DNA from: an uncultured Gammaproteobacteria bacterium
GTDB lineage: Bacteria > Patescibacteriota > Microgenomatia > Daviesbacterales > UBA10151
NCBI GenBank assembly: GCA_964387865.1
Contig: CAYLXC010000001.1
Location: 50,597 to 114,596 of the forward strand
Length of the DNA stretch: 64,000 nucleotides
Direction: 5' to 3'
In this document: positions 2,281-49,120 of the stretch, piece after piece
How positions within the stretch are numbered: the stretch's first letter is position 1
Layout of the letters: every line of letters starts with the position of its first letter
Made by a program: the position numbers and the translations under genes
Notes under the pieces: generated by a model
Databases searched by the model: none
What the model saw: the letters and a program-made list of their open reading frames with translations, nothing else
Told to the model about the DNA's origin: nothing

Positions 2281-2351
2281 CTGCGGGACTAGGATTTGAA
2301 CCTAGATTAACGGATCCAGAGTCCGCTGTGCTACCGTTACACCATCCCGCA
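2281..2351 (-). tRNA. tRNA-Gln (anticodon CUG)
   Basis: Minus-strand read UGCGGGA-UG-GUGU/AACGGUAG/CACA... with anticodon stem GCGGA/UCCGU and loop CUCUGGA (anticodon CUG). T-arm CUAGG-UUCAAAU-CCUAG, 7-bp acceptor UGCGGGA/UCCCGCA, discriminator G. No encoded CCA, consistent with a cca gene in the window. Confidence 0.8.
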
Positions 2352-11160: not shown

Positions 11161-11208
11161 ATGCAAAACCTAAGAAGATATTTTAATTTCTTCTTTACCT
11201 TCGCTTAA
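11161..11208 (+). CDS. putative 15-aa Phe-rich leader peptide MQNLRRYFNFFFTFA
   Basis: Near-leaderless ORF directly after the promoter. Its stop codon sits at the base of hairpin A. The composition (FNFFFTF) resembles E. coli pheL ([15 protein letters not shown]). Confidence 0.35.
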   Translation: MQNLRRYFNFFFTFA

Positions 11209-11277
11209 ACGGAGGTTGGTTTTTGTGTAAAAAAACCAACATAACTTAACCTCCGTTTATAAGTGGAGGTTTTTTTT
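11207..11277 (+). promoter_or_regulatory. attenuator-like leader unit 1: hairpin A (aaacggaggtt...aacctccgttt) and alternative terminator B (acctcc..ggaggt + T8) whose 3' arm is the SD for the ATG at 11278
   Basis: Direct reading: 'ggaggt' (11211-11216), 'acctcc' (11249-11254), 'ggaggt' (11265-11270), 'tttttttt', then ATG. Confidence 0.5.
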
Positions 11278-11520
11278 ATGGAGAAAAGAAAGGAAGGTGA
11301 AAAAATGGTAGAAAGAATAATTGTAAAACCCGAATATCCCGAACAAAAAGGTATTACTCGGGCTTTAGCTGATCTTGATCGAATTCAAGTAGATATTAGA
11401 GGAAGAATGATTGGTTCAGAGCCAGTCGCACAGACAGGATCATCAAGTTTACAAACTAGAGTAAAAATATCACTAGAATATCCAGATCCTACTGAACGAA
11501 AACCATATTTCGTTCGCTAA
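11278..11520 (+). CDS. hypothetical small protein (80 aa from ATG 11278; table ORF starts at GTG 11263)
   Basis: SD GGAGGT lies 8 nt upstream of ATG 11278. The product has no recognised motif. Confidence 0.45.
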   Translation: MEKRKEGEKMVERIIVKPEYPEQKGITRALADLDRIQVDIRGRMIGSEPVAQTGSSSLQTRVKISLEYPDPTERKPYFVR

Positions 11521-11563: not shown

Positions 11564-11668
11564 ATGTCAAAAGTTGAAGTAATTGATTTAAGAAAAGTAG
11601 AAGTTATTCTTGGCCTCCTTATTTTAGTGCTCGTTACGGGCACTTTTTTGGGAGGTCTTTTTAGGTAA
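11564..11668 (+). CDS. putative 34-aa Leu/Val/Ile-rich leader peptide MSKVEVIDLRKVEVILGLLILVLVTGTFLGGLFR
   Basis: It starts right after the promoter. Its last codons (gggaggtcttttt) form the 5' arm of hairpin A of unit 2. Branched-chain residues (L8, V6, I3) are enriched, as in leu/ilv leader peptides. Confidence 0.35.
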   Translation: MSKVEVIDLRKVEVILGLLILVLVTGTFLGGLFR

Positions 11669-11720
11669 AAAATAACCTAAAAAAGAAAGTAATCAGACCT
11701 CCCTAACGGGAGGTTTTTTA
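11650..11720 (+). promoter_or_regulatory. attenuator-like leader unit 2: hairpin A (gggaggtct...agacctccc) and terminator B (cctccc-taac-gggagg + T6) that contains the SD of the next gene
   Basis: Direct reading of the sequence. Terminator B is a 6-bp GC stem with a 4-nt loop and a U6 tract, immediately followed by start codon TTG 11721. Confidence 0.5.
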
Positions 11721-12011
11721 TTGGGAAAAAATATGAGTGAAAGATTTAGACCAGATACAATACATAGAAGGGCCTATAAAATAGCCTCAGAAACCTTTGC
11801 GAATGTCGAAAGTTTAACTGATGAACAAGTAGGAGTAGTAGAAAATGACAGAAGAGGTAGAAGAAGAATGATCCATTCATTACAGCAAAGTCTGAAGGAA
11901 ACTTCAGGAGAAGAACGAAGACGGTTACTTGAGCAGTTACATGATCTGGAATCGCATCAATTCGCATCAAGATATGCAATCGAAAAACGTTCAGGTAAAA
12001 GATTTTTTTAA
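11721..12011 (+). CDS. hypothetical small basic protein (96 aa, Arg-rich)
   Basis: The ORF follows SD GGGAGGT at optimal spacing from start TTG 11721. No recognised domain. Confidence 0.45.
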   Translation: MGKNMSERFRPDTIHRRAYKIASETFANVESLTDEQVGVVENDRRGRRRMIHSLQQSLKETSGEERRRLLEQLHDLESHQFASRYAIEKRSGKRFF

Positions 12012-12291: not shown

Positions 12292-12378
12292 ATGTATTCC
12301 ATATGCATACTAAAGCTGAAATTATTATTGGAATTATTATTACTTCTAAAAAGGGAGGTTGTTTGGCGTAAGTCTTAA
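12292..12378 (+). CDS. putative 28-aa Leu-rich leader peptide MYSICILKLKLLLELLLLLKREVVWRKS
   Basis: Ten Leu including LLLELLLLL. The ORF ends inside the 5' arm of hairpin A of unit 3. It is preceded by a weak TTGCAC-17-TAGCAT promoter-like pair. Confidence 0.4.
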   Translation: MYSICILKLKLLLELLLLLKREVVWRKS

Positions 12379-12431
12379 AAAAAGATTCCGCAACAAACCT
12401 CCTGAAAGGGAGGTTTTTTAATGAGAAAAAT
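12348..12431 (+). promoter_or_regulatory. attenuator-like leader unit 3 upstream of the cimA/leuA-family gene: hairpin A (gggaggttgtttggcg...cgcaacaaacctcc), terminator B (acctcc-tgaaag-ggaggt + T6), and an 8-codon uORF (ATG 12421, MRKIWQKL) overlapping the cimA start
   Basis: Direct reading of the sequence. SD GGGAGGT (12408-12414) is optimally spaced for ATG 12421. The cimA ATG at 12432 is in another frame. Confidence 0.5.
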
Positions 12432-14003
12432 ATGGCAGAAACTTTAAAAATAGTACCTTACGATACAACGTTAAGAGATGGTGCTCAGGATGCAAGGGCT
12501 AGACTCTCTGTAAAGAAGAAACTAAAAATTGCTCAAAGATTGGACCAACTTAGGTTCCCCTTTATAGAAGGTGGTTGGCCTGGGGCAAATGAAATTGATA
12601 CAGAATTTTTTAGACAAGCAAGAGGTATGTTTGAGAATAGCCAGTTTGTTGCGTTCGGAATGACCGCAAGAATCGGTGGCAGACCTGAAAACGACGATGG
12701 GCTAAATGCACTTCTTGAGTCTGGAACAAATTTCATCACTATTTTCGGAAAAACATGGGAGACTCATGTCCAAAATGCGTTAAGAGCACCCAGCTATAAG
12801 AACTTGGATACTATTTTCGAAAGTGTTCGCTTTCTAAAAGCTGAAGGACGAGAGGTAATATTTGATGCAGAACACTGGTTTAGTGGTTATAGAGAAAATC
12901 CAGATTATGCTCTTGAATGTTTAGAAGCAGCAGAAGCTGCTGGTGCCAGAACACTAGTTCTTTGTGATACCAATGGAGGCAGTAATCATAGATTTGTAGA
13001 AAGTGGGGTTAAAGCAGCGAGAAGTAGATTTCCAGATACAGAGTTGGGGATCCATGTACATAACGACAGTGCTCTAGCGGTTATTAACACAATCGTTGCA
13101 GTAGAAGCAGGAGTAATACAGGTTCAAGGGACTATTAACGGCTCCGGAGAAAGGGCAGGAAATGTGGATCTGTGCCAAGTATTGCCAACAGCAGAATTTA
13201 AATATGAAATACCTAGCGGTATAGATTTGAGAACTTTAACTAAAGCATCTCGCTTTGTTGAAAGTATAAACGAGATACCTGTACCGGATAATACTCCATA
13301 TGTTGGCAGAAATGCGTTTGCCCACAAGGGAGGAGTACATCAATCCGGCCAGAGGCGAGCTGATAAAAGGCAAGCGAGTGATGAGGCGGCATATGAACAT
13401 ATAGAACCAGCTTTAGTAGGAAATAAGAGAATTTATATTATGTCAGAACAAGGCGGGTCGACAAATATAGAGATTATGGCAGAAAAGCATGGATTTCAAG
13501 TTGACAGAACTGATCCATTATTTACCTTACTCGTTGAAAAAATGAAGCAAAAAGGTATTTTTGGAGATGCACAGGAGTATCTCCTGCTCTATGAAACTTT
13601 AACAAATGAACAAATACCTTTTGATGTTTTAGAAAGCCGTGTTGTAGACGAACGGGGTAGAGATCCTGAAGCTAGCATTAGAGTGCGGGTAAATGGCGAC
13701 ACTCTACATGAAGCTAATTTAGGCAAAGGTCTTATAAATGCTTTTGATAATGCTTTAAGAAAAGCTTTATTACAAAAGTATAAGGAAGTTGCAGACATAA
13801 CACTTGTTCCAGGAAGTTATAGAGTTACACTTCCCATGGGGGATAGTGATTCAGCTGCTGAAGTGGAAGTATACGCTGAGTTTGCCGCAGATGGCCAACA
13901 ATGGAGTTCACGTGTTCGCGGAACGGATCAACAACGTGCCGGAGAAGATACTTTTATCCAGGCTTACCAATATTACATTTTAAGAAGGCGTTCAGGTTTC
14001 TAA
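12432..14003 (+). CDS. cimA: (R)-citramalate synthase / 2-isopropylmalate synthase family protein (DRE-TIM metallolyase with C-terminal LeuA-dimer regulatory domain)
   Basis: N-terminal DTTLRDGAQ hallmark, HxH metal site (IHVHND), 523 aa with a C-terminal regulatory domain typical of CimA/LeuA. Composition is GC-richer than the flanking genes. Confidence 0.8.
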   Translation: MAETLKIVPYDTTLRDGAQDARARLSVKKKLKIAQRLDQLRFPFIEGGWPGANEIDTEFFRQARGMFENSQFVAFGMTARIGGRPENDDGLNALLESGTNFITIFGKTWETHVQNALRAPSYKNLDTIFESVRFLKAEGREVIFDAEHWFSGYRENPDYALECLEAAEAAGARTLVLCDTNGGSNHRFVESGVKAARSRFPDTELGIHVHNDSALAVINTIVAVEAGVIQVQGTINGSGERAGNVDLCQVLPTAEFKYEIPSGIDLRTLTKASRFVESINEIPVPDNTPYVGRNAFAHKGGVHQSGQRRADKRQASDEAAYEHIEPALVGNKRIYIMSEQGGSTNIEIMAEKHGFQVDRTDPLFTLLVEKMKQKGIFGDAQEYLLLYETLTNEQIPFDVLESRVVDERGRDPEASIRVRVNGDTLHEANLGKGLINAFDNALRKALLQKYKEVADITLVPGSYRVTLPMGDSDSAAEVEVYAEFAADGQQWSSRVRGTDQQRAGEDTFIQAYQYYILRRRSGF

Positions 14004-26151: not shown

Positions 26152-26192
26152 CAGAAAAGGCAGGAATTTTTGGGGCAGAAATATTTTTTGTG

Positions 26193-26494
26193 CCTAGGAA
26201 GATAGTAAGCCAGATTCTGTTTCAAGATGATAATTTATCTAATGCTCCTGATTTCGAAAATCGAGCGAGCAGCTCTTTCGGTTCTAGGATTGCAGCGGGG
26301 AGGATTGCCCGTTTCACTCCCACACCAGATGGTGCGGGATTCGTCACTGTTGCTCTAACTAGTGATTACTCATGCCGATTTACATCGACCACCCTGCTCT
26401 ACGCTGTCTGGACTTTCCTCCACGTTCATGTAAACTACGTTCGTGTAAACCGAATCGTAGTAAACTGAACGTGGTAATCATCCTTCTTCCTAGG
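26193..26494 (-). ncRNA. rnpB: RNase P RNA (bacterial type, reduced)
   Basis: The minus strand contains the P4 signature GGAGGAAAGTCC...AGGGTGG and the 3' P4 strand ACAGAATCTGGCTTAC. P1 is closed by 'cctaggaaga'/'tcttcctagg'. It lies in a 360-nt gene-free gap. The overlapping plus-strand ORF 26124-26468 is spurious. Confidence 0.75.
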
Positions 26495-41569: not shown

Positions 41570-41641
41570 TCGGAGATAAGGGAATTGGACCCTTTGCCTC
41601 TCGGACCCCATCCGAGCGTTCTACCGATGAACTAATCTCCG
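41570..41641 (-). tRNA. tRNA-Pro (anticodon GGG)
   Basis: Minus-strand read CGGAGAU-UA-GUUC/AUCGGUA/GAAC-G-CUCGG/AUGGGGU/CCGAG-AGGCA-AAGGG/UCCAAUU/CCCUU-AUCUCCG-A. All four stems pair and the anticodon is GGG. Confidence 0.8.
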
Positions 41642-43687: not shown

Positions 43688-43941
43688 ACATAAAAATTTC
43701 AGGTTTTGTCCAGGGAATTTTTTTCAGATTAACAGCAAAAGAAAAAGCGGAAAAATTGGACATCAGGGGATTTTCAAGAAATCAGCCAGACGGATCTGTT
43801 TATATTGAGGCAGAGGGAGATGAGAAAAGTTTAAGTGAATTTATAAAATGGTGCCACCAAGGTCCGTCCTTAGCAAAAGTGGAAAAAGTTGAAATATCAG
43901 AGGGATTGCTGAAGCATTTCTCAGAATTTGAAGCTTATTAA
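43657..43941 (+). CDS. acyP: acylphosphatase
   Basis: ISGFVQGIFFR and GFSRNQPDGSVYIEAEG signatures. Start taken as ATG 43657 (about 94 aa). Confidence 0.75.
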   Translation: MESRQPTKHLNIKISGFVQGIFFRLTAKEKAEKLDIRGFSRNQPDGSVYIEAEGDEKSLSEFIKWCHQGPSLAKVEKVEISEGLLKHFSEFEAY

Positions 43942-45047
43942 ACAATTCTTTCCCAGGGGAATTCTTCGCGCCCGAAGTGGCCATACGCGGCTGTTGGTAA
44001 ATAAATTGGCCTTTGTAAATCCAAGCCTTCCAAAATTCCTGCAACTGATGTATCCAAAATTTTATCCATAAAAGAAAGAATTATCTTGTGTGATTTTTTG
44101 TTAGTTCCAAAAGTTTCTACATCCTGCATAGTTGGCTTTTTTGCCCCAATAAAATAAGCAAGTCTTACCTCCGCTTTTTCAGCTAAGCCATGAGCTACAA
44201 CATTTTTTGCTAAAAATCTTGCAGCATAGGCCCCGCCCCTATCAACCTTTGATGGCTCTTTTCCTGAAAAGCATCCTCCTCCAACCCTTGCATATCCTCC
44301 ATAAGTATCAACAACAATTTTTCTTCCGGTTAACCCGCAATCCGATGCAGGCCCGCCATTATGCCAAATTCCTGTCCCATTAACAATTAATTCCTTCTTC
44401 TTAATTTTATATCCGAAAGTATCCAAAACCGGAGTTACTACTATATTATAAACATCATCCTTTACTTGATTTAAATTTATGGATTCTTTGTGAGGTATAG
44501 CAACAACAACTTGCAAAACTTTGTAAGGTTTGCCGTTTCTATATTCTATAGTTACTTGCGATTTCCCATCCGGTCTAAGATAATCCAACATTTTCTCCTC
44601 CCTTACTTGATCCATTCTTTTAACTAAAGCATGTGCAATCATAATTGGAACGGGCATTAATGTGGAAGTTTCTCTGCAGGCAAAACCAAACATCATGCCC
44701 TGGTCTCCTGCCCCTTTTTTCTTAACTCCTACTGCAATTTCAGGGGATTGTTCATGCACAAAAACCTCAATAGGTGACTTATCTGAAAAATTAAATTTGG
44801 GATTTGTATATCCAAGTCTCCTTATTTGCTCCCTGGCAATTTTTTTGTAATCCACTTTTGCATTCGCGCCTATTTCTCCTGCAATAATTAACCTGTTATT
44901 TGCCGCCAGACACTCAATTGCAGTCCTGCCTTTTGGATCTTGTTTTAATACTTCATCCAAAATTGCATCAGAGATCTGGTCACAAATTTTATCAGGGTGA
45001 CCGGCACAAACAGATTCTGATGTAAAAGTTGTTATACCGTTTTTCAT
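43938..45047 (-). CDS. metK: S-adenosylmethionine synthetase
   Basis: FTSESVCAGHPDKICDQISDAILD N-terminus and the GGGAFSGKD-like motif (GGGCFSGKEPSKVDRGGAYAAR). Confidence 0.9.
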   Translation of the reverse strand: MKNGITTFTSESVCAGHPDKICDQISDAILDEVLKQDPKGRTAIECLAANNRLIIAGEIGANAKVDYKKIAREQIRRLGYTNPKFNFSDKSPIEVFVHEQSPEIAVGVKKKGAGDQGMMFGFACRETSTLMPVPIMIAHALVKRMDQVREEKMLDYLRPDGKSQVTIEYRNGKPYKVLQVVVAIPHKESINLNQVKDDVYNIVVTPVLDTFGYKIKKKELIVNGTGIWHNGGPASDCGLTGRKIVVDTYGGYARVGGGCFSGKEPSKVDRGGAYAARFLAKNVVAHGLAEKAEVRLAYFIGAKKPTMQDVETFGTNKKSHKIILSFMDKILDTSVAGILEGLDLQRPIYLPTAAYGHFGREEFPWERIV

Positions 45048-45048
45048 G

Positions 45049-45190
45049 AAAAAAACCTCTCATCAAGAGAGGTCCAAAGTTTGCCCATACTGGACCACAT
45101 CCCACAATTATGTAAACTAATTGTGATTGGCACCGTTCTTTCCGGTTGCCGCCCCGTACCATACAATACAGGATCTCTTGATGCAGATAC
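45049..45190 (-). promoter_or_regulatory. metK leader: terminator/SD-sequestering hairpin (acctctc-ttgat-gagaggt + U7 + AUG), a long-range competing segment (gcatcaagagatcc), and a SAM-I-like core (GGCAACC-GAAAGAAC-GGUGCCAAU); putative SAM-responsive riboswitch
   Basis: Read from the minus strand: P3-like 'ggcggcaaccggaaagaacggtgccaatcac', the 5' strand 'catcaagagat' complementary to 'tctcttgatg' in the terminator 5' arm, and terminator stem acctctc/gagaggt followed by TTTTTTT and the metK ATG. Confidence 0.45.
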
Positions 45191-45211
45191 TAGTAAACCA
45201 TAAATCGTCTA

Positions 45212-46633
45212 TTATTGCAAGGCATCTGTATTAACCCCGTCCTTAAAATCAATTTCCGGGTATTTATGTAAAATATCAGAAAGAGTTTTTTTCAATTTTA
45301 CATATTCATCTGCTGTTTTTGCCTCATATTTTATAGTAAGATACGGACCATTTTGAGATGCCCTTATTACCCCCATCTCATCTTCTGTATCAAATCTTAC
45401 ACCATCAATTTCAACATAACTGGCATTAGGATATACCGCTTTTATATCTTTAGTTATTCCCTCTGATACCATTTTAAATTTAATATTATCCGGACAACCC
45501 ACTTTTATTTCCGGACTGCTATGATATTTTGGTAACTCATCGACAACTTGGTCTAAAGATTTATCTACTCTTGTAAGATATGCCAAAAGTCTTAAGGTTG
45601 CATATGCCTCATCATCATGACCATAAAAATTATCTGCAAAAAACATATGCCCGGAAAGTTCTCCTGCAAAAGGGGCTCTTTCTTCTTTAAGCTTTGCTTT
45701 AATAAATGAATGGCCTGTAATCCAAATTACCGGCTCACCACCATGTGCTTCAATTACATCCCTGGTTTGTTTTGAACAGAGCACGTTAAAAACAATTTTT
45801 GCTCCCGGCATAAAATCCAAAACATCCATAGCAAATATTGCAACCAAAGTATCATTCCAAATTAACCTCCCCTGCCCATCAACAATCCCCATCCTGTCAC
45901 CGTCAGTATCATATGAAAAACCAATATCTGCCTTCTCCTTAACCACTCTTTCTGCCAGTCTTTCTTGTACTTCCCTTTCAGTTGGATCAGCTGTTCCTAA
46001 AGGAAAGGTACCATCAAGTTCCGTGTGCTGCTCTATTACCTCACATCCTGCTTCTCTTAAAATTTTAGGCAAAAACATACCTGCTGTTCCATAAATTGTA
46101 TCAACAACAACTTTAAACTTTCCAATTTTTCCAGTCCGTCTTAATATATCTTTTTTATATTCAGGAAAAATATCAACTTTTTTATACTTTGCTTTGCGGT
46201 TAAACTTTTTAAACTGTCCGTCTTTTGCAATTTCCTTAAGTTTTTGAATCTCAATACCAGTCATTGTATCCGAAAAACCTACAGCCATTTTTATTCCGTT
46301 ATACTCTGCCGGATTATGGGAAGCTGTAATCATTACAGCTCCCTTAAAACGCAACGGGTATTGAGCAAAGTAAACAATTTGAGCCAAGGCCAATCCTATA
46401 TCAACAACATCTATCCCAGAATCTAAAAGTCCCTTAATAAATGCTTTGGAATAACTTTCAGATGTTGTCCTATTATCCCTTCCTATAACAACTTCCCAAA
46501 TCCTTCGCTGATAAAGAAATGTTGCATATGCCTTACCCAAAAGTTCCATTATATCTTCATTTAAATCCACCCCGGAAACTCCCCGAAGGTCATATCCTCT
46601 GAAAATATGGTCATTGATGGTTGCTTTAGACAT
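45212..46633 (-). CDS. phosphoglucomutase/phosphomannomutase family protein
   Basis: Active-site TASHNP (ITASHNPAEYNGIKM) and metal loop DTDGDR. Confidence 0.85.
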   Translation of the reverse strand: MSKATINDHIFRGYDLRGVSGVDLNEDIMELLGKAYATFLYQRRIWEVVIGRDNRTTSESYSKAFIKGLLDSGIDVVDIGLALAQIVYFAQYPLRFKGAVMITASHNPAEYNGIKMAVGFSDTMTGIEIQKLKEIAKDGQFKKFNRKAKYKKVDIFPEYKKDILRRTGKIGKFKVVVDTIYGTAGMFLPKILREAGCEVIEQHTELDGTFPLGTADPTEREVQERLAERVVKEKADIGFSYDTDGDRMGIVDGQGRLIWNDTLVAIFAMDVLDFMPGAKIVFNVLCSKQTRDVIEAHGGEPVIWITGHSFIKAKLKEERAPFAGELSGHMFFADNFYGHDDEAYATLRLLAYLTRVDKSLDQVVDELPKYHSSPEIKVGCPDNIKFKMVSEGITKDIKAVYPNASYVEIDGVRFDTEDEMGVIRASQNGPYLTIKYEAKTADEYVKLKKTLSDILHKYPEIDFKDGVNTDALQ

Positions 46634-48456: not shown

Positions 48457-48944
48457 TATCTAAATATTGTTCTTTGTTTTTTCCTGACACTGACAATATG
48501 ATCATGCGGAATACAGTATCTAAATGATATACCTCTTATTTCATCCTCCAAATCTGATATTTTTTGTATTGCATCAGAAATTGTCTCCATGCTCCACTCA
48601 GGCAAGTTGGGTTTTATAAAGGTTTTCACTTTTGGAACTTTAACCTTTATCCAGTAACCAGGAAAAGGAGGGTCTTCCCTAATTGGCCCTTTATCTAAAA
48701 CACTTCTGACAATATGGTAATTTCTATCGAGTTCTACTACTCCTTTTAAAACTACTCTCCATACCCTACCTCTATGTTCAGTCAGAAGAATTCCATTACC
48801 CATATCAACTCCTAATGACAAAGCACTATTTGCTATATGCAAATACTCGGAAGGGTCAACTTCCAATTTGTGTCTTTCTATATGATCTACAACATGATCT
48901 ACACTTGAGCAAACATTTTCAAAATATAATCTTTCCATAACCAT
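48456..48944 (-). CDS. hypothetical protein (162 aa)
   Basis: ORF preceded by SD GGGAGGT + T7 + ATG, which is embedded in a terminator hairpin. GC-richer composition. Confidence 0.5.
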   Translation of the reverse strand: MVMERLYFENVCSSVDHVVDHIERHKLEVDPSEYLHIANSALSLGVDMGNGILLTEHRGRVWRVVLKGVVELDRNYHIVRSVLDKGPIREDPPFPGYWIKVKVPKVKTFIKPNLPEWSMETISDAIQKISDLEDEIRGISFRYCIPHDHIVSVRKKQRTIFR

Positions 48945-49120
48945 AAAAAAACCTCCCTTTTGGGAGGCTTCTGTGAATTTATTAAAATCTTCTTAGATTA
49001 AGACTTATTTACCACAGGAATAAACCTCCCACTTGAGAGGTACCAATAAGCACACGAAAAGTTGTCATTTAAAATTTTCATACTTTAATCATTGTAACAT
49101 AAAGAAAATTAACTTGTCAA
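48945..49120 (-). promoter_or_regulatory. leader with promoter (TTGACA-18-TACAAT, plus-strand coordinates 49091-49120), 27-aa leader ORF (48998-49081), hairpin A and terminator B (gcctccc-aaaa-gggaggt + U7) whose 3' arm is the SD
   Basis: Read from the minus strand. It has the same architecture as the three units at 11.1-12.4 kb. Leader peptide: MKILNDNFSCAYWYLSSGRFIPVVNKS. Confidence 0.45.

Follow-up and report, generated by a model that had tools for sequence, protein, structure and literature searches.

The window, by which we mean the whole 64-kb stretch of DNA analysed, carries on its minus strand a pgm-like gene, a 164-nt leader and metK, in this order. The metK open reading frame encodes an S-adenosylmethionine synthetase in which all three Pfam S-AdoMet synthetase domains are found, and the pgm-like gene encodes PGM_PMM domains I-III. 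In the protein database, the MetK of the window is 76-90% identical to MetK proteins of Candidatus Daviesbacteria: more than 100 MetK clusters fall in this range, many of them bearing the name Daviesbacteria, and the top matches are L001 among genomes (81% identity) and L081 among metagenomes (86%). The host is a Patescibacterium near Candidatus Daviesbacteria. The order pgm-leader-metK, common to the window, L001 and L081, is kept by most of the closest relatives; L082, L083 and L011 have no pgm upstream.

The putative riboswitch leader spans about 45190-45049 on the minus strand. Its sequence is identical in three independent assemblies, and the leader as a whole folds more stably than its shuffled versions (z = -4.3). 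The features of the locus are listed below in the order of transcription, with the basis of each assignment in brackets.

45212-46633, minus strand: pgm-like gene (PGM_PMM domains I-III).
45191-45202, minus strand: putative extended -10 promoter (TG-n-TTTACT), motif TATGGTTTACTA (resemblance to the extended -10 consensus).
45180-45186, minus strand: P1 5' strand CUGCAUC, with a 5-bp core, GCAUC (RF00162 and R1 alignments, covariation).
45174-45179, minus strand: J1/2 AAGAG(A), the ligand-core junction of the SAM clan, AAGAG proper being 45179-45175 (RF00162/RF01725 consensus AAGAG).
45152-45173, minus strand: P2, a 9-bp hairpin, UCCUGUAUU-GUAU-GGUACGGGG (folding, covariation).
45129-45150, minus strand: P3, GGCAACC-G-GAAAGAA-C-GGUGCC, with a conserved asymmetric AA/U internal loop (alignments, folding).
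45141-45138, minus strand: predicted 5' strand of pseudoknot PK-2, the P3 loop AAAG (complementarity search).
45104-45128, minus strand: J3/4 (AAUC) and the internal P4 hairpin (folding).
45124-45104, minus strand: P4 itself, ACAAUUA-GUUUACA-UAAUUGU, 7-8 bp in 21 nt (folding).
45095-45101, minus strand: P1 3' strand GAUGUGG (RF00162 and R1 alignments, covariation, folding).
45083-45095, minus strand: P5 hairpin GUCC-AGUAU-GGGC, 3' of P1, the location typical of SAM-I/IV and SAM-IV (R1 alignment, RNAalifold).
45076-45082, minus strand: tail AAACUUU (complementarity search in each sequence).
45079-45076, minus strand: predicted 3' strand of PK-2, the CUUU of the tail, facing the P3 loop AAAG (complementarity).
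45071-45096, minus strand: predicted alternative hairpin, GGUCCAG (45096-45090) with UUGGACC (45077-71) (MFE fold from 120 nt onward).
45061-45070, minus strand: predicted antiterminator 3' strand UCUCUUGAUG (MFE fold of the full leader, chance test).
45049-45075, minus strand: intrinsic-terminator-like hairpin GGACCUCUC-UUGAU-GAGAGGUUU followed by U7 (sequence, terminator scan).
45061-45055, minus strand: Shine-Dalgarno (SD) sequence GAGAGGU, which is the terminator 3' arm (sequence).
43938-45047, minus strand: metK, S-adenosylmethionine synthetase of 369 aa, the presumed regulated gene (PF00438, PF02772, PF02773).

The motif TATGGTTTACTA lies 6-8 nt upstream of P1, and its counterpart TRTGRTTTAMT stands at constant spacing from P1 in all Daviesbacteria metK leaders examined. 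A sigma-70 scan did not call it, in keeping with its having no -35 element; its resemblance to the extended -10 consensus suggests that it may serve as a promoter.

Across the whole window, Rfam at gathering thresholds reported no SAM-clan family and nothing other than RNase P RNA and two tRNAs. When 351 nt were scanned permissively, SAM-I (RF00162) matched at 45094-45187, with 29.1 bits and an E-value of 1.1e-4. This is 15 bits short of the gathering threshold of 44.4 bits, yet the match covers the full length of the model (positions 1-108); P1, J1/2, P3, J3/4 and P4 fall in their canonical places, while the P2 region fits poorly. The local match to SAM-I/IV (RF01725, gathering threshold 41.1 bits) scored lower than the 29.1 bits of RF00162. 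Most likely, the window leader stays below the RF01725 threshold because of its 21-nt P4 insertion and its short PK-2.

Related leaders gave a more sensitive probe. A covariance model, R1, was built from 18 of them with the window left out and with only P1, outer P2, P3 and P5 annotated. Against both strands of the 64-kb window it has a single match, at 45073-45189 on the minus strand, with 65.4 bits and an E-value of about 4e-10; its alignment treats the P4 of the window as an insertion. Two of the relatives themselves, L002 and L086, score weakly with R1 (41 and 34.5 bits), which we ascribe to long P3 or P4 insertions, and no leader could be recognised in L007, L014, L034 and others. All the invariant core columns of the relatives' alignment are present in the window leader. 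The P3 core reads GGCGGCAACC-GGAAAGAAC-GGUGCCAAUCAC, the P3-like stretch being also written GGCAACC-GGAAAGAAC-GGUGCCAAU, and the pattern GCAACC..GGTGCYAAT occurs once in the 64-kb window against 0.01 occurrences expected by chance. An earlier, sequence-only reading of this DNA had suggested a SAM-I-clan riboswitch in the metK leader from its P3 and J3/4 consensus and a P4-like hairpin, acaatta...taattgt. Both elements are there, the hairpin at 45124-45104, and the clan assignment is borne out by the architecture, by RF00162 (E-value 1e-4), by R1 and by covariation. Covariance models of the SAM clan, which that reading had proposed for scanning the leader, missed it at Rfam gathering thresholds and found it locally.

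The same reading had also looked to an alignment of metK leaders for covariation, and this is clear among the relatives: the leader has both a SAM-clan match and covarying helices. Leaders of 14 further close relatives were added to the comparison, and pairs were counted in an alignment of 21 leaders (A5). In this alignment, which was fitted to the model structure and is biased toward it, standard pairs fill 90.9% of cells; the figure falls to 77.0% after column shuffling and to 35-43% after the partners are displaced by 1-3 columns. Double changes occur in 15 of the 24 pairs, and none of 500 shuffles reaches any of the observed pairing measures. RNAalifold, which makes its own structure prediction, recovers P1, P2, P3 and P5, with compensatory changes in 13 of 21 pairs. 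The P1 pairs covary across the 21 leaders, as do all four pairs of P5, and the outer P2 pairs show 10 and 9 double changes. Within J1/2, G-A-G is invariant and the other positions are nearly so.

When modules were folded singly, all 21 leaders gave P2 as a plain hairpin and all 21 gave P5. The P2 of the window is homologous, position by position, to the 24-nt P2 of L167, L169 and L172, from which it differs by compensatory changes of A-U to C-G. For the internal P4, 18 of the 21 gave a hairpin, and the sequences are unrelated: CCCCGAU/AUCGGGG in L175, UGCUGCACC/GGUGCGGCA in L173, and a helix of at least 11 bp in L086. As a separate observation, a P2 loop AUUGU could pair with the P4 5' strand ACAAU in the window; this complementarity is absent from the relatives.

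Some complementarity of P3 loop and tail is seen in every leader, and the potential to form PK-2 with at least 4 bp exists in 19 of 21 relatives. It covaries in the distant ones, as in AAGCUU:AAGCUU (L001), UAAGUUUU:AAAGCUUA (L003), UAGGA:UCCUA (L093), AAGUAU:AUACUU (L082), UGACUU:AAGUUA (L086) and UAAAAGUU:AACUUUUA (L083), and shows conservation, not covariation, among the closest relatives. The predicted pairing of the window, AAAG:CUUU, has only 4 bp, and this minimal form is common to the window and seven other Daviesbacteria. At one fixed alignment register PK-2 pairs in only 72.8% of cases because distant relatives are shifted by one column, and each sequence was therefore searched on its own.

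At the 3' end of the leader lies the hairpin that would carry out the regulation. Its core, ACCUCUC-UUGAU-GAGAGGU, extends to the 9-bp stem GGACCUCUC/GAGAGGUUU (45075-45053) and is followed by U7 at 45055-45049, a single C and the AUG at 45047, so that the U-tract ends 1 nt before the start codon. A consensus terminator scan calls this hairpin as well, in agreement with the sequence-only reading, which had seen both the terminator just upstream of the metK ATG and the identity of its 3' arm with the SD sequence. The usual 16S anti-SD is ACCUC, complementary to the GAGGU that lies in this arm 7 nt from the AUG. With the SD inside the terminator 3' arm, the hairpin would also block initiation on any read-through RNA. 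Proximity of a U-run to the start codon is frequent among the relatives: it falls within 0-2 nt of the AUG in 11 of 21 leaders.

The strand that could oppose this hairpin comes from the other end of the leader. CAUCAAGAGA (45183-45174), made up of P1 5' strand and J1/2, is complementary to UCUCUUGAUG (45070-45061), which takes in the loop of the terminator together with some of its 5' arm and the leading G of its 3' arm. The long-range complementarity noticed from the sequence is real, although it amounts to 10 contiguous Watson-Crick pairs and not to the whole 14/15-mers first proposed. Among 2000 dinucleotide-shuffled leaders, 4 (0.2%) form a helix of at least 10 bp, and only one of the 1024 possible 5-nt terminator loops allows a long-range helix of at least 9 bp.

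Folding of nascent transcripts of growing length suggests how the two structures might compete. At 96 nt, the unconstrained MFE fold coincides exactly with the aptamer junction, made up of a 7-bp P1, P2, P3 and P4. In the folds at 108 and 115 nt, P5 has joined it, and at 120 nt the hairpin GGUCCAG:UUGGACC appears. At 125-130 nt, AGAGA:UCUCU nucleates on J1/2 and CAUCAAGAGA:UCUCUUGAUG then displaces the P1 3' strand, which in this series gives way only after CUCU... has been transcribed. The full leader has the antiterminated fold as its MFE structure (-53.1 kcal/mol, versus -41.9 kcal/mol for aptamer plus terminator), in nearest-neighbour energies that leave out ligand, pseudoknot and tertiary contacts. 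The antiterminated fold pairs every base of the contiguous 3' strand (C)UUUGGACCUCUCUUGAUG and leaves the SD essentially unpaired, which predicts ON as the default state. The hairpin GGUCCAG:UUGGACC would, in the ligand-free RNA, keep the lower end of the terminator 5' arm paired, along with part of PK-2 and P5. Its counterpart in L173 is GGUCCAUA:UAUGG(G)ACC.

We now propose that the metK leader is a SAM-clan riboswitch of the SAM-I/IV type, switched OFF by SAM, and put the probability of this reading at about 85%. With SAM bound, P1, J1/2 (AAGAG) and P5/PK-2 would be locked, leaving GGACCUCUC free to pair with GAGAGGUUU. The terminator hairpin and U7 would then stop transcription 1-2 nt before the AUG, and in RNA that is read through nonetheless the same hairpin would hide the SD GAGAGGU. 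Without SAM, the single-stranded J1/2 would act as a toehold: once transcribed, UCUCUUGAUG would pair with CAUCAAGAGA, and this helix would displace the P1 3' strand while GGUCCAG pairs with UUGGACC. The entire terminator 5' arm would thereby be sequestered, no terminator would form, the SD would be free and metK would be expressed. The helices and their covariation, the homology to SAM-I/IV, the predicted energies and the predicted order of folding argue for this scheme; binding of SAM, actual termination and the toehold kinetics of J1/2 are what we infer from them.

Control of metK might instead be purely translational, or the hairpin might be mainly the terminator of pgm, with the aptamer a decaying relic. 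Three relatives, L001, L003 and L093, appear to regulate with no terminator at all, the 3' strand of PK-2 abutting the AUG, and hairpins combining SD, U-tract and AUG are found at other genes of the window too, where they may be a kind of compact-genome punctuation. We nevertheless consider this alternative unlikely. With its 9-bp stem and the U7 after it, the hairpin has the textbook form of an intrinsic terminator, and here it is set in a precise three-way competition with the strands of the aptamer. The conserved promoter-like motif stands between pgm and P1, and a decaying aptamer is difficult to reconcile with core positions that are all intact and with a leader that is identical in three assemblies.

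The class of the aptamer can be read from its modules. In the window, CUGCAUC/GAUGUGG is the P1 that the models and the folds place as closing a four-way junction of a plain P2, P3 and an internal P4. By inspection of the window sequence and its folds, P2 has no internal loop, no K-turn and no GA/AG tandem, and its loop GUAU finds no complement in J3/4 AAUC that could serve as PK-1 partner; the absence of the SAM-I kink-turn and of a GGCCC pseudoknot partner had been remarked on from the sequence. In the known classes, the P2 of SAM-I/IV lacks an internal loop (Weinberg et al. 2010, PMC2864571) and is not split, and the class has P4 and a PK-2 together with P5 but no PK-1 (PMC6890682); SAM-IV has a P2 split into P2a and P2b, a PK-1, no P4, and P5 and PK-2 outside the junction (PMC6890682). 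The crystallised SAM-I/IV RNA env87 (structure 4L81, Trausch et al. 2014; sequence in PMC5393176) runs through P1, ACGAG, a plain P2, P3, P4, the P1 3' strand, P5 and the tail, with P4 CACC-GGAGAC-GGUG, P5 GGCCC-GAGA-GGGC and the P3 loop:tail pairing ACGGAC:GUCCGU. A MAFFT alignment that included the env87 crystal sequence and L011 misaligned both badly, so the comparison with env87 was made visually, one module at a time: the order of modules in the window matches it one to one.

The window leader resembles SAM-I/IV (RF01725) in its core, with P1 ending in AUC/GAU, J1/2 of the form A-A/C-GAG and the asymmetric loop of P3 in GCAACC/GGUGC, and in its periphery, with a continuous P2, no PK-1, an internal P4, a P5 that follows P1 and a predicted PK-2 joining the P3 loop to the tail. 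It also lies upstream of a gene of SAM metabolism, as SAM-I/IV does. It departs from the Rfam SAM-I/IV model in having a long P4 (7-8 bp, 21 nt) and a predicted PK-2 of only 4 bp. Six related leaders pass the RF01725 threshold of 41.1 bits, namely L087 (53.0 bits), L082 (48.0), L011 (47.2), L001 (46.2), L093 (43.8) and L083 (42.8), and L081 nearly does (40.0). Taken together, the architecture, the above-threshold relatives and the window-free model place the leader in SAM-I/IV, as far as homology and modelling can do so. Whereas SAM-I/IV, discovered by Weinberg et al. (2010), was first described in marine metagenome sequences, the host here is a Patescibacterium.

SAM-IV (RF00634) shares with the window P5 and the predicted PK-2 outside the junction and a SAM-I-like binding core; membership was rejected, given the unsplit P2, the missing PK-1 and the P4 that is present. 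Another reading is canonical SAM-I (S-box, RF00162), of which the leader would be a divergent member that has lost both the K-turn and the pseudoknot between P2 loop and J3/4. RF00162 is the best Rfam match in the leader; the ligand-pocket motifs and the four-way junction with P4 inside P1 are those of SAM-I; and more distant Patescibacteria do have canonical SAM-I leaders at metK (L005, 56.8 bits; L094, 52.0; L004, 49.8). Even the OFF logic and the competition of terminator and antiterminator predicted for the window are like those of SAM-I upstream of metK in Bacillus. Yet the match stays 15 bits below its threshold, the uninterrupted 9-bp P2 with a 4-nt loop leaves no K-turn and no PK-1 partner, and P5 and a tail able to form PK-2, absent from SAM-I, are present and covary among the relatives. 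The closest relatives are above threshold on RF01725 and not on RF00162, and an internal P4 is no privilege of SAM-I, being found in the crystallised SAM-I/IV RNA as well (PMC5393176, PMC6890682). The antiterminator would come from the 5' side of the aptamer, unlike that usual in SAM-I, which is the P1 3' strand. We rejected SAM-I membership for want of K-turn and PK-1 and on the score (29.1 < 44.4 bits), and hold the divergent SAM-I reading, under which the leader had been filed from its sequence, to be quite improbable.

Hardly credible is an ON switch in which GCAUCAAGAGA/UCUCUUGAUG is the ligand-stabilised P1 and SAM frees the SD and activates metK. In favour of this, the 10-bp helix does exist and belongs to the MFE fold predicted without ligand. 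It would, however, consume J1/2 AAGAG, unpaired and conserved in every SAM-clan aptamer; the P1 of the clan, GCAUC/GAUGY, is there, covarying, and closes the junction in its canonical position; in most relatives the terminator 5' arm has P4 as its partner (CUUGAGAGG:CCUCUCAAG), with P1 unchanged; and it would make no sense as regulation for SAM to activate its own synthetase. The sequence-only reading had taken this course and had remarked on a polarity unusual for metK. RF00162 and R1 put the covarying P1 at 45186-45180 / 45101-45095 instead, and the model alignments and the folding series led us to drop the long-range P1 with its ON switch. Neither P1/J1/2 nor the terminator can form together with the long-range helix, which is accordingly predicted to be an antiterminator, and SAM should switch metK OFF. 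The polarity had looked unusual because the antiterminator was mistaken for P1.

Under the SAM-I/IV reading, the expression platforms of the relatives can be compared. The platform of env87 is reportedly a PK-2/RBS translational switch. Among the relatives, L001, L003 and L093 have the translational arrangement by their layout, with no terminator and a PK-2/RBS coupling, unlike the window, whose platform is an SD-containing terminator. Most Daviesbacteria (L081, L171, L172 and L176, with L087 similar) have a short P4, CC-UUGAGA-GG, in which CUUGAGAGG can pair over 8-10 bp with the 5' arm and loop of the terminator, CCUCUCAAG; by its position this appears to be a conventional antiterminator, supplied by the aptamer's 3' side. 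A long, unrelated P4 and a terminator loop UUGAU(G) characterise the window, L173, L175 and, in its own fashion, L082; in these leaders the partner of the terminator is P1 5' strand plus J1/2, a choice that differs from SAM-I/IV. In L173, which has CAUUAAGAG, C is replaced by U, and G-U pairs preserve P1 as well as the antiterminator. That of L175 has a 1-nt bulge, and L082 has the analogue CGAGAGGC:GCCUCUCG. Judging by these sequences, the same aptamer is joined to at least three kinds of platform among close relatives, the J1/2 type counting only three or four related sequences that may share it by descent.

A more specific proposal, to which we would give somewhat less than an even chance, is that Daviesbacteria have wired the same SAM-I/IV aptamer in two ways to the same terminator/SD hairpin, with J1/2 as a toehold masked by SAM. 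The short P4 CUUGAGAGG would be the antiterminator strand in most relatives; the window and a few others would have swapped it for an inert long hairpin, and the terminator loop would have evolved to UUGAUG, so that P1 5' strand and J1/2 became the antiterminator strand. If this is true, it would be a natural case of rapid re-engineering of an expression platform, and one in which the ligand pocket is coupled directly to a strand-displacement toehold.

There is no new ligand, fold or regulatory logic here. The mildly novel aspects are the locally rewired antiterminator and the hairpin modules that appear to have been shuffled between P2, P4 and P5. A search of the literature on riboswitches in the candidate phyla radiation (CPR) found nothing relevant. 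If SAM is bound as the pocket suggests, classical feedback of SAM on metK has been retained in a Patescibacterium whose genome is very small. Curated Rfam thresholds miss such leaders: none is reported in the window at gathering score, where the model of the relatives gives 65 bits. The roughly 20 related leaders form a compact natural series, with translational PK-2/RBS platforms, P4-based terminator platforms and J1/2-based ones, that should be useful for studying the evolution of platforms and for the design of switches in genetically intractable CPR bacteria.

Finally, near-identical hairpin modules are found at P2, P4 or P5 in different genomes, a recurrence that suggests, from the sequences compared, shuffling or duplication of modules inside the riboswitch.

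Three tandem leaders on the plus strand, lying 5' of small ORFs and leuA, are arranged like the platform of metK, where the 3' arm of a terminator-like hairpin serves as the SD and the U-tract after it ends 1 nt before the AUG:

11206-11280, plus strand: leader 1, with the metK-platform layout
11650-11725, plus strand: leader 2, with the same layout
12350-12435, plus strand: leader 3, with the same layout, preceding leuA (12432-14003)

In each of them an SD-like decoy (e.g. GGGAGGUUGUUUG) is followed by an anti-SD arm (CAACAAACCUCC) and then by GGGAGGU with U6-8, the latter adjoining the start codon; such a layout gives mutually exclusive antiterminator and terminator-SD hairpins. These leaders may be what the sequence-only reading meant when it ascribed "the same" platform to metK. 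None of the three matched an Rfam family at gathering thresholds. The gene following the last one encodes 2-isopropylmalate synthase (Pfam: HMGL-like and LeuA_dimer), and the role of the arrangement could be that of a leucine-responsive attenuator.

A further hairpin of this type is found elsewhere in the window:

about 48925-48990, minus strand: hairpin GCCUCCC-AAAA-GGGAGGU with U7, AUG immediately after

Taken together with the count of GAGGTTTTT in the window (7 observed versus 1.8 expected), it suggests that this genome habitually places the next gene's SD in a terminator-like hairpin.

Upstream of P1, the closing helix of the predicted metK riboswitch, lies a promoter-like motif:

45191-45204, minus strand: T(A/G)TG(G/A)TTTA(C/A)T, with counterparts at the matching position in relatives

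The motif is kept 6-8 nt 5' of P1 across all Daviesbacteria metK leaders compared. Its probable role is that of an extended -10 promoter lacking a clear -35 element, in which case the transcript start would fall almost at P1.

Among related metK leaders (loci L163, L164, L166, L171, L173, L174, L175 and L176, upstream of position 501), near-identical hairpin modules occupy different helix positions, genome by genome: P2 and P4, inside the P1-closed junction, or P5, 3' of P1. The CCGAUGUAAUAUCGG-like module serves as P2 in L171 and L176, as P4 in L163 and L175, and as P5 in L164 and L176. L166 and L173 have GUCGCCUAGGCGAC as their P2, and L171 has it as P5. The P5 of L174 nearly duplicates the P2 of that leader. 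Duplication or shuffling could account for this, as could functional alternative pairing of P2 with P5 strands.

One other relative (L169 / L170, positions 259-500) has about 105 nt of additional leader between the riboswitch with its terminator and metK. This stretch comprises another AU-rich hairpin and its own SD (AAGGGA), and the metK SD is not within the terminator 3' arm.

Several MAG contigs among records L003, L006, L007, L009, L024 and L029 are titled "uncultured Gammaproteobacteria", "Pseudomonadales" or similar. Their MetK and leader seem Patescibacteria-like, and the titles are probably binning or label errors.

Other RNAs in the window are:

2281-2351, minus strand: tRNA gene
26190-26493, minus strand: RNase P RNA, bacterial class A (117 bits), short at 304 nt versus a 367-position model
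41570-41641, minus strand: tRNA gene
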